A DNA stretch of 64,000 nt from Candidatus Omnitrophota bacterium (GCA_028707125.1 JAQTUX010000002.1:433872-497871); one strand, 5' to 3'. Positions 3,001 to 61,701 are shown, numbered from the stretch's first letter. The notes: a model not told the origin generated them from the letters alone. Numbers and translations: made by a program.

Positions 3001-6000
3001 TTGCCAGCGCCGGTATTGCCTGGGCATCGGAATAGAATGTCTTGTCTATCTCGTTACGCGTAATGCCGCCGAAGAACCTCTTCTCCTTTTTATCCGCGAA
3101 CAATCCCATTGCCGCGATCACCTGCCGGGCCTTTATCCCAAAGCTGACCCCTGTCTTATCCTCGTATGCCTCGTAGGCCTTTAACAAGGCGATGGCGCGG
3201 CCGTTCTCCTCAGTCGAGACACCGCCTATCAGGCGCGGCTCTATGAAATTGCCCGCCTTATCCATACGCAGGTCATAGCCCTGCTGCAAGAGCACCGGTT
3301 CCCGCGACATATCTACGCCGCCCAATTCCTCTGCCGTAAACATATCCTTTAGATCGCTCAGGCGCAGCGGCCGGCTCATAACGGCGTTGGTGATCTCCTG
3401 CGCCAAGCCAAGGAACGCGTTATCGCCGGTAGCAATGGTATAGGCGAGCATGCTCAGCGCCAGCGCCGAATCCACGCCTGTCCTGGTCCTGTATATCTCT
3501 ATCCTGCCTGTCTGGGCGTTGAAAGCCTCCGGTATACCTCTGAAATACTGTTTCCTGTCTGTCTTTACGTAATTATTCTCGTAGAACTTAAGATAGAAGG
3601 AAAGCACTGCCTTTGCCTCATCCTTCCTGTCTTTATTGAGCAGCCACATCACCAGCACTGCCTGGTCAAAGGTAAACGCCCTGTTTGCCTCAAGCGCAAA
3701 ACCCGGATGGGACACCCACAGCCCTGTCTTTTCCAGCTTGATGATACCGGCCTCGATCGCCTTTATGCTCTCCTCATATACCTCTCCGGTCTCTTTCCAT
3801 ATGGTTGCGGCACCCGCGTGTGACTGGGCGTTCTTGAATGAGACATCCAGCCACTCCTTGAGCGACTTCCAGTCATCCATTACCTCGCGATAGCGTGCCC
3901 TGAAATTCTTCTCAACCATACCGAAATCCATCGCTGTCAGGTCAGCCGCATTCTCAACAATAGCGTTTATGTCCGTATATACCCTGCCCACAAACGCCTC
4001 TTTCCGGGCAGCGTTAAGATCTTCTGACAGCTGCGCGGCGACAAACAGGTCAAGTATCTCTTTATATTTGGCGATAATGCCGTCCCTTCTCTGCGTGATC
4101 AAGCTTAATTCCTGCCTCTCCTGGGCGCCTATACCCTTATCGTTCTTCTTGTCATCAAGCGCCTTCTTGGCCTTTTCAAGCACGGATGGGGCAGGGAGCA
4201 GGGCCTTTAATTCTTTTACCTTGTTTTCAACGGCCTTCTCTATACCGTCTTTGCCCAGGCGCGCCTGAATGTCCTTGTAATTGTCTGACGGCTGCCACAA
4301 ATCATCCGGCCCTATAGCCCTGGCTGCCAGATCGCCTCTTGCCTGCAGTTCTTTCTTGGCATCTTCTACGTTCGCCTTCATCTCATCAATCTTCGATGCT
4401 TCAACCTGCAGGGGCTGGACCTTTTGTTTAGAAACCGCCTCTTTGGATGCCTTAACTAAATAATCCTCTGGATCAACTTCTCTGCCGTTGATGCCGCCTT
4501 TTCTGATCTCAAAATGTAAATGGGTCTGAGGTACATTATAGGCATTGCCTGTTCTGCCCACTGCCCCTAAGACGTCTGTCTGTGTAACCTGCTGTCCTTT
4601 CTTCACCTTAATTGAATCTAAATGAGCGTAAAGCGTATAGTTTTTGTCCTTGTGTTTAATTATCACTGTCTTGCCATAGTCCGTCTTTGAGCCGGCAAAG
4701 ACGACCTCTCCTTCTAACGCAGGATGCACGTCCGTGCCTTTTTCGGCCTCTATATCAATGCCTTGATGTTTATGGTTGTTCCTGCTGCTTACTCTATAAT
4801 CGCCGAATTCACTTACAATGTCTCCTGCAACCGGCCATGTGTAAATATTATTTTCTACTCTCCTGTCTCTCGCTATGGCGCTGAATACGATCAAATGAAG
4901 CGGTATCCTCCATGTCCCACCCGAAATCTGTTTTGTCCGCGGCGCCAGGGCATCATTCAACTCCTCTATTCTGGCGTTAATGCCGGTTGATATGCGCTTT
5001 AATACCGCCTGGTGCGTCTGCCTGCTCCACTCACCGGTCTGCTCAAGGCCCAGGCCCTTCTGCAGCGCCTTGACCTGAGAAGACAAGAGCTCGGTGTAAA
5101 TGGCGTTTGTCTCCTCATTCAGATATTCGCCGTATAACCTGATGCCGTCCAAGCCGTATTCCTTTTCTGAAGAAGAAACCCTCTTGTTCTCTAACCATTT
5201 ACCCACGATCTCCCGTATGCCGATCACCCTCTGGTCTTTCTTATTGCCGTCCACCTTGAATATATCTGAGTCATCGCCCTGCCATTTCAACTCTTCCAGC
5301 CCGGCCTTCTCTTGTTCCAGCACAAGCAGGTCGTTAAGTTTCTTCAGCTTATCCTCGGCCGCTTTTATGCCGGCATCGTTTTTCTGGGAATCGTATTCTA
5401 ATTTAAGTGAATTGATCTCAAGGCGGGCTTGGATCACCCTCTCTCTTAAGTCCTTAAATTCGATGCCGGCCCTATGCAGCAAGGCCTGCTCGGCAAACAG
5501 CCCCTTCCTCTCATCCATCAATGTATTGGCCCTGCCTTCATAAACGGCGGTCAACTCCTCCCGCAGGTTCTTCCAGTCATCTTCGTCAAGGTTCTCGGTC
5601 AGCTTATCGCGGCCGTGTATCCTGTAGAAGATATTAAGCGCCAGCACGGGGGATTTATCTACGGGATAACCCGCTTCCTTAAGTAAGCTCATCAATATAC
5701 TATCGCTGTCGGATGAGGAAGCGCCGTATTTACTGAAATCAATGGCCAGATCATCAAGCGTAATGGCCTCAAGTTCTGCCTTCTTAAGTCCTGCCTTAAT
5801 GCCCTTTATCTCCTCATCGATCGCCTTTATCAGGCCTGCCCTGTCCTGCGCTGACCTGGCGTCAACTTTTTGTCTATCCTCAATTTCCTCTTCAAGGCCG
5901 GCGATCTCTTTCCTGATTTCAAGCAGCCGCAGATTCTCTCCGGCGGCCCTGTTCTCTTTTACCTCTAACGCCTCTTTCTCTTTATTTAAGGCCTCTATCT

Positions 6001-9000
6001 TCTCTTTGTTGATGCCCTGTTTCAACTGCGCCATCTCTTCATCCAGCGCCTCAACCTGCTCGTCGTCTTTGTTCGCTGCCTTAATAAGGGCGTCCCTGTT
6101 TATCTCAAGCAGCCTGATGTCCTCTTCCGCGGTCCTGTATTCATTCGCCTCCAATGCTGCCTTTTCCGCGGCAACTTCCCTCTCTGCCTTTATCCTGCCT
6201 GACTCTGCCTCAATAGCACTCCACTTCTGGACTAACCTTCTGTACGCGCTGTCTTCGCTGCCCTGCGGATCATTCCAATATTTCCACAGGCCGTTGGCAA
6301 CCTCGCGCGCCGCTGAGCGCTCCTTGTAAGTAGGAAGCTCTGATATGGCCTCTTCCTGGCGGCCGCGCGCCTGCTTCTCTAACTCTGAATACCAATATTC
6401 GCCCTGCTGCCTCTCCTGCTCCGCCTTTTGCCTCTCGCTCAGGTCCTCTTTCCCGCCCAGGGTATAATGGATGAACTGCGGTATAGACGCTCCGGCTATG
6501 GTCTGCGGTAGAAGAACGTGCCCCAGGCCGATGGCGCCCGGAGGAACAATGAGTTCTCCGTCCTCGCTGAACTGTCCCGCGCCTTCCAGGCCGTTTGCCA
6601 ACGCCATTGCCTGCTTACCGCCGTAGTCCTTGAACAGAGGATGGTTGCCCATTGCCTGGCCGGCGTCAATGATCAATCCGATCTCAGCCGAGATCAACCA
6701 CATATGCCACAGGCCGATGTAGAAATCCTTGCCCGCCCGCACCAGAGCCATATAATATCCGTTACGATCCTTTGTCTCTATGGCGGACAGGTCGAATAAC
6801 TTCCTGATGCCCTTGTCCCCATAGAATGCCGCGGTGAGGATTATTAACGCGGGCGCGGCAACAACGGTCAAGGCCGCGGCTATGTCAAATCCGGCAAACA
6901 ACACACCCTTCCTGACGGCGCCGGCCGGTATTGACCCGCCTCTTTCTTCATATATCTTAAGGTAACTGTTACGCAGCTGCGGTATTTTCTTCAGGTTAAG
7001 GGAGATGACTATAATCGCCAGCCGGAACATCTCTTCCAGCGTATACTGCAAATGCAGCCCTGTCAGCAAGCGCTTCATCAGCATATTGCCGCCGACTATT
7101 GAAGGCGGATTGGCGATATTCCAGCCGAACAATGCCGCCAGGGGCCCGGCAACATAATCGCCGGCCAGGGCAAGCACAGCCCTGCCGATAATAAACCTGA
7201 CAATTCCGGAAGCAATAGGAAATGCCGCTTTAGCGGTTGTCCTGATGTTCTTCAGGGCATACACGGCCCGGCCTGCCAGGTCTGTGTTGGACACAGCGCC
7301 TACAGCCAGGTATTTGTCCTCCACGAATTCGGCAAACTGAATATTGGTCCAGATATAGTCAAAGAAGAAGTTCCAGAGCACCGATGCCAGATACGGCGAG
7401 ATAACGCCGAATATGGCGCCATAGAGGATGCCCGGAGCGCCTAAATAAGTCCCGCCTACGACAGCGCCGATCGCCGCCAGGGCCTTTATGTAAGCGCGGC
7501 GGTTAAGCACATCGTACGCGAAACTTAAGAAATCCTTCTTAAGCGGCCTATTATATTCTTTTGATTTTAAGAATCTCTGCCAGTCATCTTTGGTGGCGTT
7601 CATCAAGGCAATGATCAGGCAGCCGGAGAATAACAGTTTGGCGGGCTTGCCGCGGGAAAGGCGGCGGATGTCCTGCGCCAACTTGCCGATACCTAACAAT
7701 AACACTATGGAGGGGAACACGTAAGGAAATACACCGGCGATATAGGCGAGAACGGGAATGTTTGAATGAAGTATTGCTGCCGGAAGCGCTGCTTTTGTGG
7801 AGCCGGCGAACAACTGCAGGCCGTAAGAAAGGACGGAGATGCTTGTGATCAAACCAAATGACTCTTTGAGGAATTTGCGCGCCTGAGAAAGGTATCCCCT
7901 GTCAGGGCCCCTGATCCCGCCGTGCTCCACGCGCTGCTGCGTGACGCGCGCTGCCTGCGACAAGAACATTACAGAAGTATAAACGAAAGGAATGGATAAC
8001 AGAAATGCCGCGATACCCACGATTGTCAGAGGATTGGCAAAGGCGTAAAATGCCATTGCCGCCACCGGAATCAGGGCTACAACGCTCATAGCCATTGAAC
8101 CGCCGGCAGTAGCGCTGCCGGGAATGCGCTCAGAAGCGGAGCTGGAGGCCTGCTCCCGGCGCTCAGCATTTACAATACCCAGATCTTTGAATACATCGGC
8201 GGGGATAGTCGGATAGATTGCGCTGCCGCACAATATCCTGAGGAATCTTTCCTTATCCTCTGACGAGATATTCCCGGGAGCGCCTTTATAAAAATCAGGG
8301 CCCTTGATTATGGCGGAATGCAATATATCCTGAGCAGCATAGCACACAACAACATAGAAGCTCTTTACGGCTTTGTTCTGAGGAGACGCCGTATTACGTA
8401 TCATATCCCAGGACGCTTTGACGGCGCACTTCAACAAGGCCTTGCCCGGCTTACTGATCTTCTGCGTATCCTCTGCTTTAAGGTTTGCTTTGACCCAACC
8501 GTTCATAATAAACATATCTAAAAATTCGGAAAATGCCTGCACGGCAAGCGTTAAGTCATTGGGCATCACATAAATGCTGCCGCCTCGCAGCAGAAGCCAG
8601 ACGGCTGAGGCCTTCAACTCCTCGGGAAGACGGCCCTCCCTTATCTCTTGAGGAATCTGTTTCTTCTCTTTATATGCCTCCATATATTGATTGCGGAGAC
8701 GCGCGTACTCTGTGCCTATTGTGATCTCTCTATCGCCGCTCTTGACCCGCTTTGTTGACCTTATAAGACGCTCCTCAACCCAGCTGTAAAATTTGTCCTT
8801 ATCCCTGTTTTTATATAACAGATCCTTCTTTTCCCTTAGCCACGCATTCTCCCAGAGATACTGCTTTACCAGGTTATCTATGTAAGCCGGGCTTAAACCG
8901 GATGACAGTATCGCGGTATTTACCAATTCCCTGACCGTCTTTGAAATCCGAGGGCTCTTCTGCACCGCAATTTCAACGTCTAACATACCATTCAAAAATT

Positions 9001-12000
9001 CAGGAAGAATATGAAATTCGGAATCCGCCCTGTCTTTCTTCTCCCGCCTCAATCCCTCTATATAAACATTTACCACTTTGTCTATATAAAATACCTTTTC
9101 AATAATATTATAGAGATTTGTGGTCTTTAATTCCTTTGACTTGGCATGTATCGCCTGTTTTTGCGCCTCACCTTCAAGGCCGCTTAATTCACACCAGTCC
9201 TTGATCAAGCTGACAAGCACCTTAGATGTGATCCTCGCGACCAATTCCTGTTTATTAAGCGTCCTCTTAGCGGTAAGGAACCCGAATAATCCTCCGCCGT
9301 TGCCGTTCCCTGAAGAGCTTGCCTTTGGATTATTTTCCGCTAACGGCGGGGCAATGCTTATGTTAACCCTGGGCTGATCTTTGGTGCCGTTTTGTATATC
9401 TATATGGATCTGCCGCAGTACATTTAATATCGCGGTTGCCAGATCAACTGTCTGAGAAAACACATCCATGCCGTCCAGGTCCTCAACAATGACCTCTTCC
9501 GGCATATCCAGCTTCCCGGAGGGAGTCAGGAAGGAAAATTCCAATCTGCCTCCGTTGTTTACGGCGGCCCTGGGTACCACTATACCTGCCTTGCCGGACG
9601 CGAAAAGCTCGCGCGCGCCTATGTGATCAAATCCGGGGAACATCGCTTCTATTTGCGCCGCGTGCGATGCTAATAACGGATGCAGCGTTACGCACGAATG
9701 GTCTAAATGCGGATTGTCTCCTATGGTTACCAGTATGGCATCGTTAAAATAATGCTGCATCTGATGTGACTCATAAAGCGCGTCATTTACAAAGGCGAGC
9801 GAGGCCAATTTAGTAATGGTATATTTCTCCTTCTGGTCTATCCTGATCAACGCTTCTGATATGGGATTGCCTTCCCTCCACCTGTTCCTTACCCTTACAT
9901 ACCTGAAACACTCCACCCCGTTGTCTCCCGCGAACATCACACCCATAACGACGAAGTCAAAATCATCAACGGTAACATCAAGCTGCCCTAATGAATGGGC
10001 CAAACCGCTGAATCCCTGGCTTTGCCTGAATGCCTGCAGCAACTCGTCTGTCGTATTCTCTTCCCGGATATTGACTACCGCGGTCCTGTCCGTATTAAGG
10101 CCGACAAAGTGCCTGCCGTTCCTTAAGCTTATAATTAACTCTTTCAGATCTGCTACCTTGGGGCTGTCATTGCTGTCTACCAAAGTATTATCTAAGTCAA
10201 TAGAGAATATCACCGGGATCTGAATGCCCTCCAGGATGCTATTTATCTGTTCGCGCATATCCTTCTGTGATGCCATACCAAGACGCGTGAGAAGCCAATT
10301 AGTAACAGATGAGGAAGATGATTCTCCCTGTCTCTCCTTATAGGCCTGTGTGTATTCCTCCCTGTCCTTTTCGCGTAAGCCGACATACAAGGCAAGCAGG
10401 CCAACCCCGAAATCCGCCCCCTCTGCGTGGTCCATAAACCACTCTGAGATCAGCGTCAGCGCGCGCTCTGTTTCTAAGAGCGCCGGCCCCTGGTCATTCT
10501 TGCCTAAGGCCTGCAGCTTATTCCTGATGACGGCCTTAAGATAAGCCGGCAGGCCCAGCAACGCGCCTTTTTTGAACGACTCCGCGCCTATACTGTGGTC
10601 AACGCCGAATGTCTCAAAATCTATCCGCTCATTCTCCCCGTGGAATTTCATCTTAAATAACACCCAACGTATAAAGTTTACATATGATTCTATCGCGGGG
10701 CCGGTAATGCCGCTGTTAAGAGGCCTGCCGTTCTCTAAAGTAACTATTTCCACCGGGCTATTATCTAATAATTGCTCTAAAGAAGGCATTGCCCTGCGGA
10801 CCGCGTATCTAATGGGATATGTGGTGGTTAAAATACTGAAATGCCTTCCTGCCAGTTCTCCCTCCTGAATCTTCATTTCCTTCTTAAGGGCATAAGACAG
10901 CGCGATCTCGTCGCCTTCCGGCACGTTATGGCCTCTATCGCGAAGGATACCCTCCAGCTTCATTATTTTATTGCGTATTATATCCACTGCGGAAGACGCC
11001 ACGGTCACCCGGTTCCTGCCGTTTTCCTTTGAAGCATACAATGCCTCTTTGTCTGCCTTATACTCTAATGTTGCCCGGTCATTGCCATGTTCCGGAACAG
11101 CGGCAACTCCCAGGCTTATAGTAACGTTAAGGGCCTCGCCTTTATATTCTATCTTGAGGTTCTCAACCGCCGCCCTTATTCTCTCGGCAACTATTTCCGC
11201 GCCTTTGGCATCAGTTTCGGGCAGTATTACCGCCATCTCTTCGCCGCCGTAACGCGCTACGAAATCATTGGGACGTACGGCATTCTGAATAGCCGCGGCC
11301 ACCGCCTTCAGGACTTCATCCCCTGCCTTATGGCCGTGTGTATCATTAAATCTCTTGAAATGGTCTATATCGATCATTATGAGTCCAACAAAATAACCTA
11401 CGCCACGGTGAACGGCGCGTTTGAGCTGCTTATCCAGCTCGGAGTCATACGCCCTCCTATTATTCAGGCCTGTCAAGGCGTCTGTGGATACCAGCCTTTC
11501 CAAGCGTTTTATCTTGTTATTAAGCGCCAAGTAAGTCGCGGCTGCTCCCATGACTATGCCGACTGCCACACCAACCACTACCGCCGAAGAACTTGGCTTT
11601 TCCGGCACAGCCACGCCTGATACGGAGTTTACCTGATCAGGCGTGGTCTGTGTGGTTGCCGTCGATGCGGTAGACAGGGATATGGTTGTTGCGGCTGAGC
11701 TGGACCTTGCCGCGGATGGTGTCTGCGTCTGTGCCTCCGACCTCTTCCCAGGATTCTGCTGTGCCGTTACGGGCGTAGACGCGGCCCGCGCCATCGTCAA
11801 ACACAAGGAAGATGCGGGTCTTTCCGCTGGGTTCCTTTCCCGCTCCGAATACTGTCCTGTCCTTGCTGAAGATGACGAGGTGGTCAAACTGGAACTCTGC
11901 GAAGTTGATCCTGCACATTTTAATGCACCTCCTTCAATTAAATAGCGGGCGCGCTCGGTGGGGGTCAGGCCCCGGAGGTATCGGGCCACCAAAGCAACGC

Positions 12001-15000
12001 CCGCTATTATATTTGCCGCTGTAATCACGAGCCCAGCCACGGGTAGGGTGATCCCTGGCGGCGAACTTGTTCTTTCTAATAATTCAAAGGCATTCCTGGC
12101 CTTTTCTATCCTCTGCTCATCGGTCAATCCTTCTTCTTGCGCCGCGGTCAGATTTACCATTACCGGAGAGACCTCTTCAATGACATGCGGCCTGGTAAAG
12201 TAGGCGTCATCCTGCGCGCCCAGGTAATTTCTGCACCATGCCTGCGTGACCATAGTTATGCGAACAGCATTGATGTACGGAAAGCGCTTATACACGAAAT
12301 CAGTTGCCCTGTAAATATCTTCGGAATTAAGAGGACCGTAGCCCAAATGCGTTGTGCCTTTAAGGCTAGGGTGGGTATGCGCCATTTCCAGGAGGTCTAC
12401 GAACTGCACGCCTTGTTTCTCATACAATTCGGCCAACCACTGCATTATATAATAAACAGGGATCGCGTTTCTTCCGCCTTCAATGAATCTGGTATGTGTC
12501 GCGCCCCCATATACAGCCGTGATCATCGCGACTTCGGTATTCTGGGTATTCCTCCTCTTGTTGCACTCTTTATGAAGAGCCCACAAGCGGACTGCCCTGC
12601 CAACCTCTACCTCTGCCGGTATGATCCTTATAACTGAACGCTGATGAAGTATAAGCTCATCTACATCTGCTCTGCTTATAATAGCTTCTCCGTCAAACGT
12701 AGTGGATTTCCCGTCTTTTCTGATTAATATGGGGTCAAATTCCGGAACTTCGTTATGAGGGACTGTTTTGAACAGCGAACCTGCGTATACACGAATTCCA
12801 CCTGCTGTTTGCTCTGTATTCTGCTCAACAGCGACAGGTGGACTGGTTTCGTAGCGCTCTATTACCGCGGAACTCGCAACAAGAACAGCGTCAGCCGCCC
12901 TTTGTAACTGTTCAACCGGCGGCAGGATCGGCGCTATATAGGCCTTTCCGGTGGTCGCACTGCTGGAACCACTGTTTCCGTTACCGGAACCTGAACTTAC
13001 ACTCTGGGCGCCTTGGCCTCTGCCTGTATTTTCCGCAGGCAGGCCTGATTCATTCGCGTTCTTGCTGTCTGCTACTGCACTTCCTGCACCTCTACGATCA
13101 ATATGTTTGCCCGCTTCTGGCTCGACGACCTGGCTTTGGGCAAAGCCAGCCGCCCCGCTTATCCCGCCTGCTCCGGTAGCGCTTGAGCTTCCGCTCAACA
13201 TGGCGAACATCTGGTCAAGCGGAATACCCATACCCACCGTGGCTGGCATGGGAAGTATTATCGGGCTCTGTAAGATTGTCTGACTTGCGGCCGAACCGGC
13301 TGTATTAGAAGGACTGTTACCTATATTATTGCCGCCTGTGGGCGCCTGAGGCATACCCAACGGTTGCTGCGAGCTGGCAGGCGTGCCTGTTGGTCCATCC
13401 TTGGGCGCCTGTTGGCTATTCTTTCTGGCTTTATCCCTGCCCGCAGAGAAAAATGACTTAAGCATGTACTGAGAACGGACCAGTATATCTGTATTCCCCT
13501 CAACTGTATACCGATACGGATGATCACCTTCAAGCGCAACCAGGGCATTACCTTCCGGAATCTTAAATTCACCTACGATTTCTCCTCCCTTGTACCAATT
13601 CACACCCATATGGCCGACTATTTCCGCGGCTTCATTTGTTCTCAAAACACGGAATTCTCCGCTGTATACTGATGCCCCCTTAGGATATACATCAACGACC
13701 AACGTCTCATGGCCTGTTCCCGGAGTTACATACAGGTACCAATGCGCGTCATTATTTACCAACTCTACTTCCCATGCCGGGTCAAATATCTTTAATAACT
13801 GGCCGAATACAGTGTTGCGGGTCATGCAGGCAGCGCCATCCGGTAAATACATATTAATATGCCCGTATAATGATTCCACGACCTTCTCTAACGCGTCGAT
13901 CCTGGTTATCGCGGTAATATCTTTTTGTTTCTTCAGGTTACTCAACTCACTTTCCGCGATGGCAAGATCATCTTCGGCATGAATGTCTTTAAATTGACTT
14001 ATCGCCTTATCATATAAATCTATCGCGCCAATTATGTCCCCTCTTTCTGCCAACACCCTGGCCTTCTCAACTTTTGCTTCTGCCGTTGAGCTGGAAACAG
14101 GGCCTACGGGCGTAAGGGCGATGCTGCCGTCCTGCTGAAGCGCTATCCTGAAGAAATGCTTTAAATCAGCGGTGCTGGCAAGGGCCTCCGGCGGTTGAAG
14201 CGCGCCGTTAACTATCGCCCCTATTTTCAGCTCTTCTCTGAGTACCAGGGGCTGCCCCTTATAATCGTCTATCGGGGTGCCGACAGGTATTATTTGCACC
14301 GGCCTGATATTCCACGGTTGGATATCCATCTCGCCGTTATTATCCAGGGTTACCTTAAATTCATTGTCTTCTTTATCAGCGGCCATTACCTCTTTTGTCA
14401 CTGATTTTATGCTGCCGTCCTTGCCCTTCAATATATTGATCTCGCCCTGCAGGATAAGCGGATGCTCATCGTCGCTGCTGATATTCTCTCCCTGCTTGCG
14501 GGTTATCTTTAAAGGCATAAATACAGTATGGCCGTCTTTGCCTGTTTCGCTTACAATCCAGGGATCACCCTCATTATCTACAAGGTCTATGGAATCAACG
14601 CCTGTCTTTCTCTCAAAACCGTAAGGAAGATATCCTCCGGCAGCGGGCCTTAACACCTTGCCGTCGTCCAGTTTTATCTCTGCAAGTATTGTTGCCTTAT
14701 CATCGTCAAGGCACAACCAGCCGTTTATCGCCGCTGCCTGCTGCCTGGCCTTTTTCTCTATCTGCGGCTCGGTCAATTTATCCTTATTCTGCTTAGCGTC
14801 ATTAACGGCGTTCAGCGCCTCCCGCGCCATTTCAACGCTCACCACGCCCTTATTAGCCGCGATCTTATCCATCATTTCATCTATTGCGGCTATGCCTGTC
14901 CTGGCTGCCGCGGGAAGGCCTTTAACCGTCGCCGCGATGCCCAATTTCCCAAACCTGCGCATATTCTGCCACAATAAAGGATTGATCCTCAATATACCCG

Positions 15001-48466: not shown

Positions 48467-50065
48467 TTATTGTGAGAACCAGAAACGGCGGCCGGTTTTA
48501 TCAACGCTATTTAGTTCGTTGGCGCGCTTAGAAAGATAGGCAATATCGTTGGTATGGCCTTGCGGCTGGAATTTGATGAGGTTGTATTTATCCTGTTGGA
48601 TCGATCTGCCGCGTAGTTTGAAAACCCGCTCCGTTATATCGTTTAAGGCAATCTTATCATAACCTATTGGCAATAAATGTGTTGCGCAATACTTTATCAG
48701 GCCCCAGCGCCAGGCCTTAAGCACGCTCTCAAAGGATAGCGCCTCAGGTATGTATCCCCTCTCCCCCTGCTTGCGCGTTTCCTCCGTCGAGAAAACATTC
48801 TTCAGGCCGAATGAGAAAAACTCGATCCTCTTGTTGAAATCATCCAGAGCATCCTTGAAATCAGGCCATTTGTTTAAATACGCCCGGGCAACGTCCTCTT
48901 TGCTTAACGACTCTTTATCCATATCTGTCAGCAACACAAGATAATACCTGTCCCGCGAGGCCTTCTTAATGAAAATGGCCCTTAACGTAACTAATTGATT
49001 TAGCTTATGTTGCGTGAATTGAGCCGTCCCTTCCGACAATACGATCTCCTCAAGATCGGGTCCTGGCCGGAAAAAAGACCCTTCTTTTTTATCCTCTAAG
49101 GCGATTTCGGAGGCGTATTGCCCTTCAGGCAGCCCTATTATAAAGTCGGTTTTAAGGCGCGGTATCTCGCAGGCGCTGCTTATCTCCTCTCTGCCAGAGG
49201 TGAAGAACGATATGTTTTTAACGTAGAGATGCGAGGGGAACTTACAGCAGCCGATGAAATCAAGCAGGCCTTGCGGCATCTTGCTCGCTAAGGGGGCGAT
49301 AAAGATAACAAACGGCTCTGTCTTGTTTATGAAGGTATTTTTTATATAAATCTCTGTATTGTAATATGTTGCGTAAAAATCTGACGGGATATTACCATAA
49401 GGCCAGATCGTCCTCGCGCTTGCGTCAATATATATTGAAGAGTCGTCTGATAACACAAATTTCAAATACTGCACCTCTCGGATACGCGGCATAAGCTCTT
49501 TGTATAACCTGAAATTGATTGCTGTATTATATTGCAATTGTTCAAGATAAGATACCAACCCCCCATAATCTATGCCGGCTCCTGTAAGGCGCTCAAACGT
49601 CTCTTTTATATAACTATTTGATTCGTAATCGTTTACGTCACCAAATAGGGAGATGTACAATAAAGTTTCCACGAGCGCCCTGATGTTTCCAGGGGCATTT
49701 TCGGCAGTGGTTTCTTGCAATAAATTCGTTATATAATCAACCCCTCCCAAAGTGTTTTCAATTGCCTTGAGCAAATATAGGCCCATATTCAATTCGCCTT
49801 CTTGAGGGAGTTTTGGGGGCTCCGGTTTTATCTCTGGCCTTATCTCAGGAAGGGGCGGCACAGGCGCCCCCTTCCTGCGCCTGCCAACAGGGCTGCTTAG
49901 ATTTAATTGTTTGATTATATTATTTACTGTGGACTTTGATATTGTCTTATTGAATCTCTGAGAAAGCGTAGCGGATATTTTCCTCGCGCTCAGGCCGGGG
50001 TTTTGCTTCTTAAGATCAGAAATGCTCTGTTTGAGCTCTTCAGTTACTTTGTAGATAACGCCCAT
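48467..50065 (-). CDS. Hypothetical 532-aa protein with N-terminal HTH-like segment
   Basis: Track ORF. The N-terminal '…LSARKISATLSQRFNKTISKSTVNNIIKQ…' resembles a helix-turn-helix, followed by a Pro/Lys-rich linker and a large unassigned domain. Confidence 0.55.
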   Translation of the reverse strand: MGVIYKVTEELKQSISDLKKQNPGLSARKISATLSQRFNKTISKSTVNNIIKQLNLSSPVGRRRKGAPVPPLPEIRPEIKPEPPKLPQEGELNMGLYLLKAIENTLGGVDYITNLLQETTAENAPGNIRALVETLLYISLFGDVNDYESNSYIKETFERLTGAGIDYGGLVSYLEQLQYNTAINFRLYKELMPRIREVQYLKFVLSDDSSIYIDASARTIWPYGNIPSDFYATYYNTEIYIKNTFINKTEPFVIFIAPLASKMPQGLLDFIGCCKFPSHLYVKNISFFTSGREEISSACEIPRLKTDFIIGLPEGQYASEIALEDKKEGSFFRPGPDLEEIVLSEGTAQFTQHKLNQLVTLRAIFIKKASRDRYYLVLLTDMDKESLSKEDVARAYLNKWPDFKDALDDFNKRIEFFSFGLKNVFSTEETRKQGERGYIPEALSFESVLKAWRWGLIKYCATHLLPIGYDKIALNDITERVFKLRGRSIQQDKYNLIKFQPQGHTNDIAYLSKRANELNSVDKTGRRFWFSQ

Positions 50066-50532: not shown

Positions 50533-52691
50533 TACTGCTTGAAGAGGTTATCAGGGACTTCAACACCGTGGGACTTTATTTCCTCTATAAATGAAGGGAT
50601 ATATCCTGTGGGGATGTAGGTGCCGGTGATCCTTCCGTCCTTATCAAGCCCTGTCTGCTTGAATGTAAAAATGTCCGCCATATCAATATGCACGTCGTCC
50701 TTCATGCCGGTGATCTCGGTGATCTGCATGATCTTCCGGGAGCCGTCAGAAAGCCGCGCCGTATGCACGATTATATCAACTGCCGAGGCGATCATTTCGC
50801 GTATGGCGCGGATAGGCAGTTCTGCCCCGGACATCAGTATCATTGAATCAAGCCGGGAAAGGACATCGTGAGTGGAATTGGCGTGTATGGTGGTAAGCGA
50901 ACCGTCGTGGCCTGTGTTCATTGCCTGAAGCATATCCAGGGATTCCGGGCCGCGGCATTCGCCTATTATTACCCTATCAGGCCTCATTCTCAGGGTATTC
51001 CTGAAAAGCTCCCGTATGCTGATGCCGCCCTTGCCTTCTATATTGGGCGGCCTTGACTCAAGCCGCCCCCAATGCTCCTGGCGAAGCTTCAACTCTGCCG
51101 CGTCTTCAATGGTTATGATCCTCTCATTCTCCGGTATAAACTCGGAGAGCACATTCAAAACCGTGGTCTTGCCTGAGCCGGTTCCGCCGGACACTATCAG
51201 ATTCTTACGCACGATCACGCATATCTTTAAGAAATCCTTCATCTGTTCGCTTAAGGTGCCGAACCTCAGCAGATCATTGATATTGAACCTCTCTACGCCG
51301 AATTTCCTTATGGTAAGCATTGGCCCGGTAAGGGAAAGCGGCGGGATGATCGCGTTCACGCGGGAGCCGTCAGGAAGGCGCGCGTCCACCATGGGAGTGG
51401 ACTCGTCAATATGCCTGCCGAGAGGGGCGATTATCCTCTCAATGATCTGCCGGACCTGATCGTCCGAAAGAAACCTCTTGCTGGTCAATTCTATCCTGCC
51501 GCGCCTTTCTATATAGATCTGGTCCTTATTATTGACCATTATGTCGGTTATGTCTGGATCGCTGATAAGGTCTTCCAGCGGCCCTAACCCCAGCGCTTCA
51601 TCCGTGATCTCTTTTATAAGCCGCTTTCTAACCTCAAAACTGGAGAGGAATGCTCCGGTCTCGGCAGCCAGGGCGTTTGACACGGCCTTCTCGGTCTTCT
51701 CCTTTATCTGGCTCACCTTATTCGGATCGATCGTATTCAGATCAAGCCGTTTCAGATCCAATTCTTCTATGATACGCTGGTGCACCCTTTTCTTAAGGAT
51801 GATGACTTCGTCCCTCTCGGACTCTACTCTTTCCGCCAGGCGCAGCGGCTCAGCCAACCCCAGGCGCCGCCAGAAATCTCCTTCCTTGGCCAAAACAGAT
51901 TCTCTTGCCCTCTCCAGCGCCACCTCCTGGTGTTCAATGTACAGGTCCGCCTTCTCAACAAGGACCTTGCCCAGGCCCTTGATCACATTGCTTACCTTTG
52001 AGCGCGGGGCGTCAATTACGATGGGGACCCTTCTGTTCACGGAATAACCCACTGCCTTGCCTTCCGAGGGGATCTTGGCCAGTATCTCACAGGGAAGCGC
52101 TGCCCTTACCTCCTGCCAGGTAACACCCCCCACGCTCTCTGAACGGTTGAGGAGAAGCTTTACCATTTTCAGGGGGAAGTGCAGCGATTGCAGAACATCC
52201 AATGACCACTTGGTCTGATACACGGAAAGTATGTCGGGGGTAACCACCAGGAGGACAAGGTTTGACTGATTAAAGGCATAAAACAGCATCTCAGAAAAAC
52301 CCTTACCCACATCCATAATAACGTAGTCATATTCCTTATTGAGCATCGCGAAGACGTCGCTTATGTATTTTTCCTCAAGGTGCACGCTCTGGCGGGGGCG
52401 GGAGACCGCGGCAAGGAAATCAATTTTCAGATCGGGGAGTTTCAGCATAAACTCCCTTATAGACGCCACCGGCGGCTGTTTCTTAAGGCCGACTATCGCG
52501 TCAAGAAAGTTATACGACGGGCTTATGTTAAGCATGCGCGCCATATCTCCCGGCGCCTGAGTATCCAGGTCAAGCAGGGCGACCTTCTTGCCCTGGTCTT
52601 TTGCTATGCTTACGGCAAGATTGGCGGCGATAAGGGTTTTCCCTACCCCACCCTTAGTGGAGAAAATCGCGATTGTCTTAGCGGAAGGCAT
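50532..52691 (-). CDS. tadA: Fused TadZ/CpaE-like ParA-type ATPase domain + TadA/CpaF secretion ATPase (719 aa)
   Basis: The N-terminus 'IAIFSTKGGVGKTLIAANLAV' is a deviant Walker A of the MinD/ParA/CpaE type. The C-terminus 'IVSGGTGSGKTTVLN…' is a CpaF/VirB11-type Walker A, followed by the His-box region. Confidence 0.8.
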   Translation of the reverse strand: MPSAKTIAIFSTKGGVGKTLIAANLAVSIAKDQGKKVALLDLDTQAPGDMARMLNISPSYNFLDAIVGLKKQPPVASIREFMLKLPDLKIDFLAAVSRPRQSVHLEEKYISDVFAMLNKEYDYVIMDVGKGFSEMLFYAFNQSNLVLLVVTPDILSVYQTKWSLDVLQSLHFPLKMVKLLLNRSESVGGVTWQEVRAALPCEILAKIPSEGKAVGYSVNRRVPIVIDAPRSKVSNVIKGLGKVLVEKADLYIEHQEVALERARESVLAKEGDFWRRLGLAEPLRLAERVESERDEVIILKKRVHQRIIEELDLKRLDLNTIDPNKVSQIKEKTEKAVSNALAAETGAFLSSFEVRKRLIKEITDEALGLGPLEDLISDPDITDIMVNNKDQIYIERRGRIELTSKRFLSDDQVRQIIERIIAPLGRHIDESTPMVDARLPDGSRVNAIIPPLSLTGPMLTIRKFGVERFNINDLLRFGTLSEQMKDFLKICVIVRKNLIVSGGTGSGKTTVLNVLSEFIPENERIITIEDAAELKLRQEHWGRLESRPPNIEGKGGISIRELFRNTLRMRPDRVIIGECRGPESLDMLQAMNTGHDGSLTTIHANSTHDVLSRLDSMILMSGAELPIRAIREMIASAVDIIVHTARLSDGSRKIMQITEITGMKDDVHIDMADIFTFKQTGLDKDGRITGTYIPTGYIPSFIEEIKSHGVEVPDNLFKQ

Positions 52692-52700
52692 AGTTATTCT

Positions 52701-54311
52701 TCAGCGTCTTTTATAAACAATGGGGACGTCAACCCAGAGTTCTCCATCCTGGATCTGGGGCGGAAACGGAGGATAGGGGGACTGCGCTTTGGCAACGGAG
52801 ATCGAGGCGTCATCAATGATCTTGTAGCCGGATGACTCGGTTAATTTTATATCCCCGAGCCGGCCGTTACGCAGGATGCGAAGGCTTAATTTCACTACCC
52901 CTTCCCATCCCGCGTCGCGGGCAACCTTAGGATAATACACTGACCTGGATATCTTGGTCTGCACTGCCTTGACGTATTTGTACACATTTTCGTTGCCCAG
53001 AAAATATGAAGGAGAGACGATATCCGCCTCAAATGAGGCATCGCTCCTCTGCCGGGACATCCCCCCCTTGCGCAGGGAAAGATTGCCGATGTCCTCTTCC
53101 TTTATAACGTGAGGGGTAAGAGTGATCACCAGCTCCGTCTGGTTATTGGTAAAACTTTTTGACCTGAACAGAGCGCCTAAAACCGGCACATCTCCCAGGG
53201 CAGGCCACTTAGTCAAGGTATCGCTGTCTTTATTCTTAATTAAACCCGCCAGAAATACGGTCTGTCCGTCCTTAAGATATAGTTCGCTCTCCGCCTTGCG
53301 CGTGTCAAAGCCGGGTATGTTGATACCGCCTGCCGTTACTGAATTAGCGGTATTTATCTCGCTTACCTCCATTGTCAGCTGGGTAATGATCGCCTCGCTT
53401 TTTGTGTAAGTAGGCTTGATCTTCAAAGAGATACCTATATCCCTGTATTCCACATTAGTGGTAAAATTCTCTCCCAGCGTGCTGGTAGTGACAATGGGCA
53501 CCTCTCCGCCGACAAGGAACTCCGCCTCTTTACCGCTTAAACATACGAGTTTTGGCCGGGAAAGCACCCTGCCCTTGCCGCGCTTGATATACATGTTCAA
53601 TGCCGCGGTCACGTCTGTGCGGGTAAGGTAGCCGATCCTGAATGCCTCCGCCACCCTGTGGCTGAGCGGCTCTGTGGCTATGCCTTCAAAGGGGTTTTCC
53701 GTTACGGTTGTAAGCGGCTGGAGCGTCCAGCCGACGCCCAGATTATCGGCGTCGTCTATAGTCAACTCCAGGATCTGGACGTCTATCTCAATAGAGGTCT
53801 TTGACTCCTCGGTAATAACCGTGTTTACTACATATTGTTTCAAATCGCCCAATACGTAGTCAAGCTTCTCTTTTTCCGCTTCATTCACTACCTGTCCGCT
53901 CAGAAATACCTTCCTCTCATCCTCGTTTATCTTTGTCTGAACTTCGGAAAAACCCGTATCCGCGAGGACCCGCTTGATCCGCGCGTTAACCTGGTCCAGA
54001 TCCACGCTGAATACCTTCAGGCGGAAGGAGTGCTCGCCGAATTTATCCCAGTAAACAAAGGTGGTGGTGCCGTCCGCCTTAGCGTTCACTACTATATCTG
54101 TTTCAGTAACCTCGGCGACATCCGCCACAGCGGGATTACCGATCACCACCCGTGTCGGCTCTTGCGCTTCAAAATGCCTGACCTCATTCACCATCAGCAT
54201 TATCTCTTCAACGCCTTCTATCTCCCCTATATCAAACAATGCCGACGCGGGAGCGGGATGCGACAGTGCCAGTAAACCAACCAGGATAGGAACTAACAGC
54301 GCTTTTCTCAT
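52701..54311 (-). CDS. cpaC: CpaC/RcpA-type secretin with C-terminal TonB_C-like domain
   Basis: Signal peptide. Secretin core '…LVCLSGKEAEFLVGGEVPIVTTS…ISLKIKP…VFLAGLI…'. C-terminal 'YPKVARDAGWEGVVKLSLRILRNGRLGDIKLTESSGYKIIDDASISVAKAQ…PFP' resembles the TonB C-terminal domain. Confidence 0.8.
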   Translation of the reverse strand: MRKALLVPILVGLLALSHPAPASALFDIGEIEGVEEIMLMVNEVRHFEAQEPTRVVIGNPAVADVAEVTETDIVVNAKADGTTTFVYWDKFGEHSFRLKVFSVDLDQVNARIKRVLADTGFSEVQTKINEDERKVFLSGQVVNEAEKEKLDYVLGDLKQYVVNTVITEESKTSIEIDVQILELTIDDADNLGVGWTLQPLTTVTENPFEGIATEPLSHRVAEAFRIGYLTRTDVTAALNMYIKRGKGRVLSRPKLVCLSGKEAEFLVGGEVPIVTTSTLGENFTTNVEYRDIGISLKIKPTYTKSEAIITQLTMEVSEINTANSVTAGGINIPGFDTRKAESELYLKDGQTVFLAGLIKNKDSDTLTKWPALGDVPVLGALFRSKSFTNNQTELVITLTPHVIKEEDIGNLSLRKGGMSRQRSDASFEADIVSPSYFLGNENVYKYVKAVQTKISRSVYYPKVARDAGWEGVVKLSLRILRNGRLGDIKLTESSGYKIIDDASISVAKAQSPYPPFPPQIQDGELWVDVPIVYKRR

Positions 54312-55206: not shown

Positions 55207-56127
55207 TTACTCCACCTTATCTTCGTACACTTCTATTTTGGACTTACTGGAAAGACCGCCTATCAATTCTTCGATCTTCTGTTGCTGCTTGAGGAACCTC
55301 AGGCCGTTCTTAATATCATCCCACATCTGCGCCAGCGAGCGCGTCTGTCCGCCTTTCTTCTCTTCTAATTTAATAATGTAGTAGCCGTCAGGGCCTTTAA
55401 AAATACTGCTGGTCTTGCCCTGCTCAAGCGTGGGCGAAAAAGCGACATCCTCAAACTCTTTGAATTTCTGGCCCGCGGCCACAAACCCTATATCTCCGCC
55501 GTTCGCGGCTGAAGAGTCCTTGGAAGAGTTTCTGGCTACCGTCGCGAAATCAACCCCCTGGAGCAGCTGGATCAAGGCCTGCTTCGCCTCATCTTCCCCC
55601 GCCGTGACGATTATCCTGAAACGCCTCTGCTCGGGCTCGCGCAGCTGCTCTTTGAACCTGTTATAGTACTCCTCTATCTCCTGCGAGGTCACGTCTATAT
55701 TGGCCGTCTCTTCCCTGACCAGCTCGGCGACCACGAGGTTCTGCTTCAATTTATTCAGCGCCACCTCTACCTCGGGGTTATCGTCAAGGTTTCTGGCCAT
55801 ACCCTCCTGATAGAGAAGCTCCCTTCTAACCAGTTCATTCCTGAGATAATCCAGTTTTTTATCCCGCGTATCTATCTTAAGCTCTGGCCTGTCCGCGGGG
55901 ACCAGGTTGTTGTAACCCGCAACCTCCTGATTTAAGTCCTCCAAGGTCACGAATGAATCGTTGACCTTGGCCGCGATGGTACCCTGGGGCTTAGCCGCCT
56001 TCGCTTCTGTTGTCTTTTTTTCTGCCCCGGCCTGCTTTTTTAAAAAGGGGATCTGGTCGCATCCCCACAACATAGCTGCTGATAAGATCACGAAAGAAAG
56101 AAAAACATGACTGCCCCTGCCCTTCAT
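55207..56127 (-). CDS. Parvulin-type peptidyl-prolyl cis-trans isomerase (SurA/PrsA-like), probable lipoprotein
   Basis: Signal peptide ending …AAMLWGC (atypical lipobox). A SurA-like chaperone N-region is followed by a PpiC domain ('…GGDIGFVAAGQ…FSP…GKTSSIFKGPDGYYIIKLEEK'). RBS GGAGGT 6 nt upstream. Confidence 0.7.
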   Translation of the reverse strand: MKGRGSHVFLSFVILSAAMLWGCDQIPFLKKQAGAEKKTTEAKAAKPQGTIAAKVNDSFVTLEDLNQEVAGYNNLVPADRPELKIDTRDKKLDYLRNELVRRELLYQEGMARNLDDNPEVEVALNKLKQNLVVAELVREETANIDVTSQEIEEYYNRFKEQLREPEQRRFRIIVTAGEDEAKQALIQLLQGVDFATVARNSSKDSSAANGGDIGFVAAGQKFKEFEDVAFSPTLEQGKTSSIFKGPDGYYIIKLEEKKGGQTRSLAQMWDDIKNGLRFLKQQQKIEELIGGLSSKSKIEVYEDKVE

Positions 56128-56313
56128 ATGATTACCTCCCCGTAAAAAGAAAAAGCCAGCCGGTAATTTTTACCGCGGTGCTGGCCGTCCTCATAAACAA
56201 TATCCTTTCTCATATCTTGTTTATATTCTATAACATAAATATAATAAGAGTGCAAGAAAAATTTTAATATAAATAAAAAACTTTTAAGAAGAGAAATATG
56301 GTATATAATCTTA
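56128..56313. promoter_or_regulatory. AT-rich divergent intergenic region with promoter-like elements for the minus-strand tad operon and the plus-strand glycosyltransferase cluster
   Basis: 186-bp AT-rich spacer between divergent genes containing several TATAAT/TATATA matches (e.g. 'ggtatataat' ~56,290). Confidence 0.4.
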
Positions 56314-58308: not shown

Positions 58309-58311
58309 GAT

Positions 58312-59073: not shown

Positions 59074-59205
59074 CATAACGGCCAGGCCCTGCCTTCTGAT
59101 ATGTTTCCTCGTGCTGATCGCTTCCTAATATGGCTGAATATCATAAGGAACTGGGACGGGTTTACGAAATAACCCTCGATCCCGGTATGGCCACCGAGAA
59201 ATCCG

Positions 59206-61557: not shown

Positions 61558-61561
61558 ATAA

Positions 61562-61636
61562 TAGCCCCAACCGGATTTGAACCGGTGTTTAAAGGCTGAG
61601 AACCTTCCGTCCTGGACCAGGCTAGACGATGGGGCC
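61562..61636 (-). tRNA. tRNA-Glu (anticodon CUC)
   Basis: Minus-strand sequence GGCCCCATCGTCTAGCCTGGTCCAGGACGGAAGGTTCTCAGCCTTTAAACACCGGTTCAAATCCGGTTGGGGCTA folds as a cloverleaf. The D-arm is almost identical to E. coli tRNA-Glu. The anticodon loop is TTCTCAG and the T-loop GGTTCAAATCC. No CCA is encoded. Confidence 0.8.
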
Positions 61637-61656
61637 AAGAGGCCAAAGTTTTTATT

Positions 61657-61684: not shown

Positions 61685-61701
61685 TATAAAATAAGAGGGC
61701 G

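Follow-up and report, generated by a model that had tools for sequence, protein, structure and literature searches.

A 64,000-nucleotide stretch of DNA from a Candidatus Omnitrophota bacterium (the ‘window’) carries on its minus strand a giant stop-free reading frame that harbors, between two transmembrane (TM) helices and in another frame, a small gene with its own Shine-Dalgarno (SD) sequence and a conserved RNA hairpin ahead of it. On the comparative evidence, this arrangement is quite probably one continuous giant gene with an embedded cassette (hairpin, SD and a 93-codon ORF, about 410 nucleotides in all), of which both frames would be translated. The features concerned are the following.

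38341 down to 2, minus strand: giant stop-free frame, 12,780 codons
12058-11975, minus strand: first TM helix (TM1), PGITLPVAGLVITAANIIAGVALVARYL, giant frame
11939..12008, minus strand: sense-strand RNA hairpin, ~70 nt, ending ~7 nt before the SD
11597..11974, minus strand: giant-frame spacer from TM1 to TM2, ~126 aa, rich in S/T/A/R
11932-11927, minus strand: SD sequence GGAGGT, read as Gly-Gly in the giant frame
11918..11637 including TGA, minus strand: nested small gene, 93 aa, in frame +2 (= -1) relative to the giant frame
11596-11519, minus strand: second TM helix (TM2), SSAVVVGVAVGIVMGAAATYLAL, giant frame
11488-11009, minus strand: GGDEF domain, giant frame, Pfam PF00990

The giant frame and the small gene within it

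The 3' end of the giant frame lies beyond the window’s left edge, and its length is therefore at least 12,780 codons. The encoded protein starts with a signal anchor and contains a Peptidase_C39 domain (aa 177-255), a Peptidase_M23 domain (aa ~11191-11291) and TM-like segments at aa 10-32, 8762-8789, 8916-8941 and 10079-10509. Directly upstream come two TadB/C-like T2SSF genes and a Tad locus, the genes on that side being T2SSF twice, a T2SSE/CpaE fusion, a secretin, RcpC and Rotamase_2. Judged by its size (the type being taken as above 7,000 aa), its N-terminal anchor and C39 domain, its TM segments and its upstream locus, the giant gene is assigned to the Omnitrophota ‘Archaeovorin’ type, for which the paper by West-Roberts et al. 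(bioRxiv 10.1101/2023.11.21.568195) gives an N-terminal signal, C39, many TM segments, an internal GGDEF, peptidoglycan-degrading domains and, as in the window, an upstream T2SS/Tad-like locus with a Rotamase_2 PPIase. Small pilZ genes directly 3' of the giant gene are a further mark of the type, at a place that here falls outside the window.

A preliminary description of this DNA had listed a TM helix, a low-complexity spacer, a second TM helix and a GGDEF domain, and each element was found in its place, on the minus strand; the spacer is junk-like and the GGDEF domain complete. The PF00990 match (E 9.1e-48) is full-length, covering positions 2-161 of the 161 in the profile, and the domain is a predicted cyclase: it contains RPNDFVARYGGEEM, with M in place of F and GGEE intact, the metal-binding Asp motif IDIDHFKRFND is present, and RPND (the RxxD inhibitory site) stands five residues ahead of GGEEM. 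Under a simple positive-inside rule, the topologies of TM1 and of TM2 (followed by the positively charged NNKIKRLERL) conflict for one chain, which could reflect either processing or unreliable TM calls.

About 93 of the spacer codons are dual-coded with the small gene, whose ORF and start signals are also present as first described: the SD, an 8-nt spacer (GCATTAAA) and an ATG at 11918-11916, with an in-frame TGA just 5' at 11936-11934. The length of the small ORF is by itself not beyond chance, the giant ORF containing seven ORFs of 70 aa or more in other frames of its own strand, whereas its codon signal, its homologs and its recurrence are. A codon-usage scan of all 12,780 codons found a single place at which another frame outscores the giant one, namely aa 8795-8900 (window 11641-11956), where the score falls to -24 against a mean of +34 (sd 10).

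The 93-aa product has homologs along its full length (E 3e-25 to 5e-17); homologs measure 88-99 aa, with identities of 44-63%. The search returned 191 cluster representatives at E<=1e-3, and among the 150 of these that were listed, nearly all are full-length, at ~76-110 aa. Conservation begins exactly at the Met and includes the positions FDH, RxFL, YxRNG, WE and IPVYRI. The AF2 model is confident (pLDDT 83.5, pTM 0.74), and the product, a member of an unannotated family of ~90-aa proteins, is predicted to be folded, with a beta-sheet plus helix. An earlier proposal that the small protein might be PilZ-like or otherwise related to c-di-GMP gained no support. A profile search of the 93-aa ORF for PilZ gave no match; the window protein has no Pfam match at E<=0.01, 66 family members have none in Pfam or NCBIfam, and PilZ is absent even among the 25 Pfam families listed for those 66 members at E<=1. 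Neither PilZ motif (RxxxR and [D/N]xSxxG) occurs in the small-protein sequence, nor does the protein show the six-stranded PilZ beta-barrel. Furthermore, the small gene has no conserved link to GGDEF, which in just four other loci comes as near as 6 kb or less to the cassette and is adjacent in none.

Recurrence, selection and the upstream hairpin

The copies compared were those of the window, of 15 loci (L001-L015) and of 41 metagenome contigs (L016-L056), mostly from Omnitrophota and not wholly independent, as a contig may in some cases be present both as a metagenome locus and as a MAG locus (L046 = L015). In every copy the small gene has the same relative frame and sits inside a long open host frame, mostly of more than 4,000 codons and open past both locus ends. 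The comparison of orthologous loci proposed at the outset thus returned the nested layout, with no host-frame stop, in every close relative examined.

The start signals are equally constant. GGAGGTG is invariant among 32 aligned loci, with AGAGGTG in one related locus; GGAGG occurs in 47 of 49 unique upstream regions, the remaining two having AGAGG, and its distance to the ATG is 5 nt in 44 loci and 8 nt in three. All copies of the small gene keep the SD followed by ATG. In the small frame, 39 of 49 loci have a stop at most 110 nt 5' of the ATG, and 18 have one at most 30 nt away.

Across the small gene, the host frame (relative +1) contains no stop in any copy, while relative frame +2 contains 1-15. 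When small-gene codons were resampled synonymously, 2.6-7.0 host-frame stops were expected per gene and none was observed in 16 of 16 (P(0) per gene 0 to 0.039); the other frame fits expectation. Divergence at the three codon positions of the small frame is 0.32/0.25/0.57, and identity at the amino-acid level reaches 0.60 for the small frame, compared with 0.33 for the host frame and 0.31 for the third. By these measures, purifying selection acts on the small-gene frame only, and the host frame simply stays open: the spacer’s openness is conserved and its amino-acid sequence is not. With its own start signals, purifying selection and a host frame open beyond chance, the small ORF is, on comparative grounds, a nested gene, and the recurrence of the same layout in ~55 environmental assemblies unrelated to one another indicates a real one rather than an assembly error.

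The hairpin, which was not among the observations of the preliminary description, consists of a long interrupted stem, an ACCUCC apical loop and a CUGACCCC 3' bulge. Its 5' arm also encodes the last ~11 codons of TM1, and its giant-frame reading ends in NIIAGVALVARYLRGLTPTERARYL. A covariance-model search returned 70 matches, all 70 on the small gene’s strand. Of the cells, 88.7% are paired, where shuffles give 69.6% and slid partners 45-55%; compensatory double-sided changes occur in 21 of 21 pairs and the covariation score is 0.52 versus 0.21, the alignment having been fitted to 10 of these pairs. There are 118 GU pairs and only 35 AC pairs. A search of Rfam gave no family match (a single miRNA match, at E 6.8, is at chance level). 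On this comparative evidence, the hairpin is a conserved cis-acting structured RNA on the transcribed strand.

Of 47 loci, 27 contain CCTCC 5' of the SD (background 4%), and the loop sequence ACCUCC is complementary to GGAGGT. As the SD does not vary, covariation cannot lend support to a pairing between the two, and because ACCUCC lies in the loop and the SD outside the hairpin, such a pairing would need a long-range contact or an alternative fold. In the distant relative L058, where the small gene is free-standing, the hairpin is without CCUCC.

Origin, read-through and rival explanations

In two distant family members (L058/L059 and the P0158 contig), the small gene stands as an ORF of its own between two large genes, the downstream one beginning with a signal peptide. 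In L058/L059 the hairpin likewise lies upstream and the Gly-Gly is encoded by the upstream gene, whose product in L058 ends only three residues later. These free-standing relatives suggest an ancient fusion, in which the large genes of an operon ‘A-small-B’ may have been joined through the small gene’s +1 frame. At the same time, homologous flanks between loci are rare (upstream, 41 out of 741 pairs; downstream, 16 out of 820), several loci have more than one cassette copy as well as hairpin-only or degenerate copies, and L013 has two copies with 87% nucleotide identity over ~407 nt, exactly the hairpin plus small gene, amid unrelated flanks. The rarity of flank homology and the cassette-only duplication in L013 put mobility or gene conversion on an equal footing with a single ancient fusion as the origin.

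Of 53 loci, 6 have an SD with a host-frame start codon after the small ORF (background 16%), and 13 have no host-frame start codon there at all. With no start signal downstream of the small ORF, the part that follows, GGDEF domain included, must come via read-through. A continuous giant protein with an internal GGDEF domain and an overlapping small gene, one of two alternatives originally put forward, is supported by this absence, by selection and by the avoidance of stops.

A different and rather unlikely view is that the giant ORF is not one protein, and that the cassette marks a boundary at which transcript or polyprotein is cut, the hairpin being an RNA-processing or ribosome-release site; in one version, the C39 peptidase would cleave after the SD-encoded Gly-Gly and the parts would then act as separate proteins. 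At the cassette, a TM-ended module does meet a module that starts like a signal anchor, and the two are encoded separately in the free-standing relatives, the downstream gene beginning with a signal peptide; a Peptidase_C39 domain lies at the N-terminus of the giant protein, cleavage has been raised as an open question in published work, and cutting the chain would remove the positive-inside conflict between TM1 and TM2. The Gly-Gly is always present at the SD, and many loci have hydrophobic residues at -4 and -7; however, its invariance is forced by the GGAGG of the SD, E at -8 and L at -12 of the double-glycine leader consensus (LSxxELxxIxGG) are not conserved, and the early end of the L058 upstream protein likewise speaks against this view. 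The missing downstream start signal and the selection for an open frame contradict a cut in the RNA; post-translational cleavage is compatible with read-through and is not its rival. It is less likely still that the cassette is a semi-autonomous or mobile element, spread or gene-converted within and between giant genes and served by the small protein, its intrinsically open +1 frame allowing in-frame insertion to spare the host. Such an element would account for a conserved island amid non-homologous flanks, for the multiple, hairpin-only and degenerate copies and for the exact extent of the L013 duplication; but no family member has transposase or recombinase similarity in Pfam or NCBIfam, the cassette has one hairpin rather than a pair of ends, and members of the family have been seen solely next to or within large genes, free-standing operon versions included. 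Giant proteins are, moreover, poorly conserved in general, and divergent flanks need no mobility.

SD-like sequences are able to stimulate ribosomal frameshifting, and the small ORF lies in the -1 frame close to a very stable structure, so that a programmed -1 frameshift, stimulated by the hairpin and giving a truncated or fused product, could be imagined. The positions of the small-frame stops (in the window, the TGA at 11936-11934) largely refute this reading, conservation of the protein only from its Met onward also opposes it, and inspection of the upstream alignments by eye showed no conserved slippery heptamer; it is very improbable. Scarcely any probability attaches to an assembly or sequencing artefact, in which compensating indels or a lost stop would have falsely joined genes in the window. 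Homopolymers (GGGG, CCCCC) are indeed present at ~11960-11975, and both other frames are stopped at TTTAATTGA, but the same layout and relative frame occur in ~55 separately assembled loci from many samples, and stops are avoided by codon choice. The artificial fusion entertained earlier was rejected because of this recurrence; an evolutionary fusion, the other half of that proposal, stands as a plausible history in the light of the two free-standing relatives.

Known systems and a proposed role for the cassette

Several known systems resemble parts of this arrangement. The comS gene of Bacillus subtilis (46 aa, conserved in a narrow clade) lies out-of-frame and on the same strand within srfAB and has its own start; as here, a small gene is found in another frame of a huge gene whose own frame remains open. 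The present family differs in encoding folded proteins of ~90 aa with ~45-60% identity across many Omnitrophota, in having a conserved structured RNA and, in some cases, several copies per host gene, and in overlapping a non-conserved spacer instead of an enzyme domain. Fully embedded genes are also known from phages (Rz/Rz1 spanins of lambda, whose products cooperate, and E within D of phiX174); those belong to compact genomes in which both frames are constrained as protein, whereas in the present case a cellular gene longer than 38 kb is the host and only one frame is so constrained. In the MS2 coat/replicase or lysis genes, hairpins that sequester an SD give translational coupling. The cassette similarly has, before an internal start, a stable structure with an anti-SD-like element that ribosomes translating the giant frame would melt, although its ACCUCC belongs to the loop and its SD lies outside the hairpin; the pairing is a candidate. 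The out-of-frame nested sORFs of E. coli, such as gndA within gnd (PMC11230408), are same-strand alternative-frame ORFs in annotated genes that standard gene callers miss; they are below 50 aa and narrowly conserved, whereas the present gene is about twice as long, belongs to a deep family and has strong comparative statistics.

The preliminary description had called both of its alternatives unusual. For the GGDEF part this no longer applies, since GGDEF domains inside Omnitrophota giant proteins are already published (bioRxiv 10.1101/2023.11.21.568195). That paper and a 2026 complete-genome survey treat the giant ORF as purely single-coding; the terms ‘nested’ and ‘small ORF’ are absent from both, and ‘overlapping’ and ‘embedded’ have other senses in the passages displayed. 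The nested cassette is apparently undescribed.

In the proposed mechanism, ribosomes arriving from upstream would, as selection for an open frame suggests, read straight on in the giant frame through the spacer, the second TM helix and the GGDEF domain, while others would start at the internal SD-ATG and produce a small, folded and probably cytoplasmic protein, as the conserved SD and ATG and the purifying selection in the small frame imply. Tentatively, the hairpin may gate or insulate the internal start by means of its SD-complementary loop, and gating might in turn tie synthesis of the small protein to the passage of giant-frame ribosomes. Since the unit of hairpin, SD and small gene is, when free-standing, flanked by two large secreted or membrane proteins, the small protein may most readily be pictured, again tentatively, as a partner dedicated to the giant protein or to its membrane-anchored modules, acting in their handling, assembly or regulation.

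Layout of the small gene and its giant host

The giant frame of the window runs stop-free through 12,780 codons, and its product combines a signal-anchor-like N-terminus, a Peptidase_C39 match (aa 177-255) and a weak TPR match with a complete GGDEF domain, a weak PG_binding_1 match and a Peptidase_M23 domain. The last two come after some six TM-like segments clustered at aa 10079-10509, and are consistent with a peptidoglycan-degrading extracellular module. The giant gene is directly preceded by two T2SSF (TadB/C-like) genes and a CpaE/CpaF-like ATPase, in a set that further holds a secretin fused to TonB_C, RcpC/CpaB and a Rotamase_2 PPIase. Passages of an earlier study (bioRxiv 10.1101/2023.11.21.568195) describe the same type of locus for the Omnitrophota 'Archaeovorin' giant genes, and note GGDEF domains inside many such proteins; the internal GGDEF domain is therefore real, but already known.

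All of the elements that the preliminary description had listed around the internal GGDEF domain (two TM helices, the spacer, the GGDEF domain itself, and an out-of-frame 93-aa ORF with its upstream TGA, GGAGGT, 8-nt spacer and ATG) are present, on the minus strand. They are given here with the other features of the giant frame.

Features of the giant frame and the nested gene in the window
38341 down to 2, minus strand: giant stop-free frame, 12,780 codons, leaving the window at its left end
12058-11975, minus strand: TM1, predicted TM helix, giant frame
12008-11939, minus strand: long, interrupted RNA hairpin, ~70 nt, directly upstream of the Shine-Dalgarno sequence (SD)
11936-11934, minus strand: TGA, small frame, preceding the ATG
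11932-11927, minus strand: GGAGGT (SD), with an 8-nt spacer to the ATG
11918..11637, minus strand: small ORF, 93 aa plus stop
Between TM1 and TM2, minus strand: S/T/A/R-rich spacer of ~126 aa, giant frame
11596-11519, minus strand: TM2, predicted TM helix, giant frame
11488-11009, minus strand: GGDEF domain (E 9e-48; RPND...GGEEM)
Giant aa ~11073-11112, minus strand: PG_binding_1, weak match
4468-4768 (giant aa ~11191-11291), minus strand: Peptidase_M23, C-terminal part of the giant protein

The length of the small ORF is unremarkable in itself, since seven alternative-frame ORFs of at least 70 aa lie on the same strand inside the giant ORF. When a codon model trained on the giant ORF was slid along all of its codons, the giant frame scored best everywhere except at aa 8795-8900 (window 11641-11956), where the frame of the small ORF was ahead by 24 log units, against a usual giant-frame margin of +34 ± 10. 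The scan gave no coding signal in the frame of another same-strand alternative-frame ORF (13321-13572, minus strand; 83 aa, GTG start, SD-like GGAGG upstream).

Several further features of the surrounding DNA were recorded. The Tad locus contains two unusual fusions, a 719-aa protein joining a CpaE/ParA-like AAA_31 domain to a T2SSE (CpaF-like) ATPase (50535-52691, minus strand) and a secretin with a C-terminal TonB_C domain (52704-54311, minus strand), as well as a 532-aa ORF with weak matches to the transposase-type HTH families HTH_Tnp_Tc3_2 and HTH_32 (48470-50065, minus strand). At the right end of the window (56000-64000) G+C falls from ~0.52 to 0.35-0.45, and in the same region (56314-61557) genes turn to the plus strand.

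A conserved protein family under dual coding

The small ORF codes for a genuine protein that is conserved. An initial search returned five relatives of 89-99 aa (48-57% identity over ~95% of the query, E 3e-25 to 5e-17), and an exhaustive HMMER search with an alignment of these first relatives returned 191 cluster representatives at E<=1e-3; among the 150 matches listed, nearly all are ~76-110 aa long and cover most of the profile. The conserved positions are FDH, RxFL, YxRNG, WE and IPVYRI, and an AlphaFold2 model, although built from only six sequences, is confident (pLDDT 83.5, pTM 0.74), with a predicted fold of five strands, a helix (residues 62-76) and a last strand. No Pfam or NCBIfam family matched consistently among 66 family members, and a search of PDB sequences found no relative. 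Residues ~21-65 of the profile do match 7-10 stretches in each of four large FG-GAP/VCBS repeat proteins (P0059, P0065, P0076 and P0083); the match was taken as motif-level similarity rather than homology, and may reflect a shared beta-hairpin motif only. Database members lie almost entirely on short contigs of ~0.5-1.4 kb, and the gene has probably been hidden from annotation because gene callers drop ORFs nested in a longer ORF.

The nested arrangement was compared across the contigs of the five relatives (L001-L005), 10 loci of GTDB genomes (L006-L015, mostly Omnitrophota MAGs or a SAG, with a few short contigs binned elsewhere) and 41 metagenome loci (L016-L056). Every copy, including second copies within a locus, occupies the same relative frame and is crossed by a stop-free host frame (relative +1), which commonly exceeds 4,000 codons and leaves the fetched DNA at both ends, whereas the third frame contains 1-15 stops across the small gene. 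The possibility that separate genes had been joined artificially during assembly is refuted by the recurrence of this layout, in the same relative frame, at some 55 loci; the stop codon that such an artifact should reveal in relatives is absent from the host frame of all copies. When synonymous codons were resampled according to local codon usage, 2.6-7.0 host-frame stops were expected per gene and none were found in any of 16 genes (P(0) per gene, 0 to 0.039), while the stop count of the other alternative frame agreed with expectation. Between copies, substitutions at small-frame codon positions 1, 2 and 3 amount to 0.32, 0.25 and 0.57, and the copies share amino-acid identities of 0.60 (small frame), 0.33 (host frame) and 0.31 (noncoding third frame). 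Stop avoidance, substitution pattern and identities together indicate, at the level of sequence comparison, that the small frame is under purifying selection for its protein and that the host frame is selected only for openness.

The physico-chemical nature of the spacer is unconserved: the host translation of the dual-coded stretch is S/T/A-rich in the window and strongly hydrophobic and TM-like in AT-richer genomes (as at L013:10001-10291). One metagenomic copy (L056:868-1034) is broken into two fragments that lie in different frames, through either decay of the copy or a sequencing indel.

RNA hairpin and inferred translation of the two frames

In nearly all loci the hairpin lies directly upstream of the SD; in the window its region folds with an MFE of -46 kcal/mol (121-nt piece). 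A covariance model built from 32 loci found 70 instances, all on the strand of the small gene and a few of them hairpin-only copies, and no Rfam family matched. In the 32-locus alignment, which had been fitted to 10 of the 21 pairs scored, 88.7% of cells are paired; column shuffles give 69.6% and slid partners 45-55%. Compensatory double changes occur at all 21 pairs (283 compensatory cells versus 94 in shuffles), and the covariation score of 0.52 (shuffled, 0.21) was reached in none of 500 shuffles. An excess of G-U pairs (118) over A-C mismatches (35) points to an RNA of the sense strand. The almost invariant apical loop, ACCUCC, is complementary to the SD (-8.7 kcal/mol), and 27 of 47 loci have CCTCC upstream of the SD, versus 4% of random windows; the CUGACCCC bulge is likewise conserved. 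The giant-frame motif AAIVV...YLRxLTP...ALITTI-GG is largely the translation of this RNA, and the 5' arm of the hairpin forms the C-terminal third of the segment originally described as TM1.

Among 49 unique regions upstream of the small gene, 47 carry GGAGG (5 nt before the ATG in 44 loci, 8 nt in 3) and two carry AGAGG; spacings of 6 or 7 nt are absent, so that the host frame always reads GGA-GGT as Gly-Gly. Protein conservation starts precisely at the small-gene Met. In 39 of 49 loci the 110 nt preceding the ATG contain a small-frame stop (18 of these loci have one in the last 30 nt; in the window it is the TGA at 11936-11934), which excludes that the small protein is made by extending the giant protein through a -1 frameshift. 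A new start for the downstream module, whether separate or by termination-reinitiation, was likewise rejected: no conserved host-frame start signal follows the small-ORF stop, an SD with a start codon being found in 6 of 53 loci versus 16% of random windows, and 13 loci lack any host-frame start codon from -30 to +90 nt around that stop. The downstream part (in the window, TM2, the GGDEF domain and ~3,700 further residues) could thus only be made by read-through from upstream, a requirement that would explain why the host frame is kept open. A scan of the window detected no sigma-70 promoter or terminator at the cassette (the ~410-nt unit of hairpin, SD and small gene); a conserved TGACC...TACAAC was discarded as a -35/-10 pair, as the distance between its two parts ranges from 16 to 21 nt and C usually occupies the last -10 position.

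An overlapping gene within a giant ORF translated by read-through is therefore the part of the preliminary interpretation that stands. Its suggestion of a PilZ-like, c-di-GMP-related product is not supported: Pfam, NCBIfam and PDB-sequence searches gave no PilZ signal of any kind, and only four other loci have a GGDEF domain within 6 kb of the cassette, never adjacent to it, so that a functional link suggested by adjacency in the window alone was abandoned. We tentatively regard the small protein as a cytoplasmic partner dedicated to the membrane-anchored modules of the giant protein. The hairpin, through its anti-SD loop, would gate internal initiation, and the small protein would be made when and where a ribosome traverses the giant frame. 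As a side idea, the invariant Gly-Gly is a putative C39 cleavage site; cleavage there would resolve a conflict with the positive-inside rule between TM1 and TM2 (as predicted by Kyte-Doolittle analysis), but the SD itself imposes the Gly-Gly, and agreement with the leader consensus is partial.

Possible origin of the cassette and possible growth of giant genes

Two distant members, P0072 (contigs L058 and L059) and P0158, at 27-31% identity to the window protein, are free-standing; another distant member, P0166 (L060), is again nested. For both free-standing members the large upstream gene stops 8 nt past the ATG of the small gene, whose own stop is followed 16 nt later by a second large gene. 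In L058/L059 the SD is read as K-G-G by the upstream gene, which ends soon after, and the downstream gene, equipped with an SD and ATG of its own, begins with a signal peptide. Stops crowd both of the small gene's alternative frames there, and the SD-ATG spacer measures 4 nt (nested copies, 5 or 8 nt). Several giant genes contain more than one cassette, as intact second copies, degenerate copies or hairpin-only copies, always on the same strand and, where a small ORF is kept, in the same frame.

Free-standing small gene (P0072) and extra cassette copies
L058:2160-2600: free-standing small gene region
L059:240-680: free-standing small gene region
L013:8468-8557, 12038-12319, 13121-13213, 14363-14450: extra cassette copies
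L009:3659-3895: extra cassette copy
L014:6856-7086: extra cassette copy
L037:5737-5821, 8137-8472: extra cassette copies

The simplest history is that of an operon, A-small-B, in which A and B became fused via the +1 frame of the small gene. The evolutionary fusion raised in the preliminary description is accordingly plausible, given free-standing relatives between two large genes, but a single event is opposed by the flanks: 400-aa flanking segments are seldom homologous between loci, and in L013 a ~407-nt unit, corresponding exactly to hairpin and small gene, has been duplicated at 87% identity between unrelated flanks. These same two observations make gene conversion or mobility of the cassette a live alternative to one ancestral fusion.

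Nested same-strand genes are known as a kind (comS in srfAB, Rz/Rz1, gene E in D of phiX174). To our knowledge, long and deeply conserved examples are very rare in cellular genomes, and most claims lack comparative support; the present case draws support from ~90 codons in some 55 loci, a host frame that avoids stops, a nested frame under purifying selection and a covarying RNA. What is new is the protein family, its unusual length and deep conservation, the coupled covarying RNA element, and the site within giant genes, which are the largest bacterial genes that we know of. Term searches of two papers on these genes (bioRxiv 10.1101/2023.11.21.568195 and the complete-genome survey 10.64898/2026.06.07.730766) found neither 'nested' nor 'small ORF', while 'overlapping' and 'embedded', in passages of both, carry other senses; a full-text literature search returned no pairing of Omnitrophota with nested- or overlapping-gene terms among the matches listed.

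Passages of the former paper ask whether a giant product works as one sequence or several, and where its boundaries lie (bioRxiv 10.1101/2023.11.21.568195). The cassette is located between module-like segments of the giant protein, and, together with its unfused relatives, this position could offer concrete junction points and a growth route by gene fusion. A broader proposal, which we consider unlikely at present, is that the cassette serves generally as a junction module in the giant genes of Omnitrophota, uniting welded operon genes, an internal control point and a cis-acting small protein. It would mark the site where once-separate operon genes became one ORF; the hairpin's anti-SD loop would make small-protein synthesis depend on the giant-frame ribosome; and the product would target, in cis, the membrane-anchored module as it emerges, with insertion, cleavage after Gly-Gly and hand-over to a Tad-like secretion machine as examples. 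Fusion at cassettes would be a route by which giant genes could grow, and the broader proposal, if true, would explain both the origin of 40-250 kb genes and the partitioning of their products.
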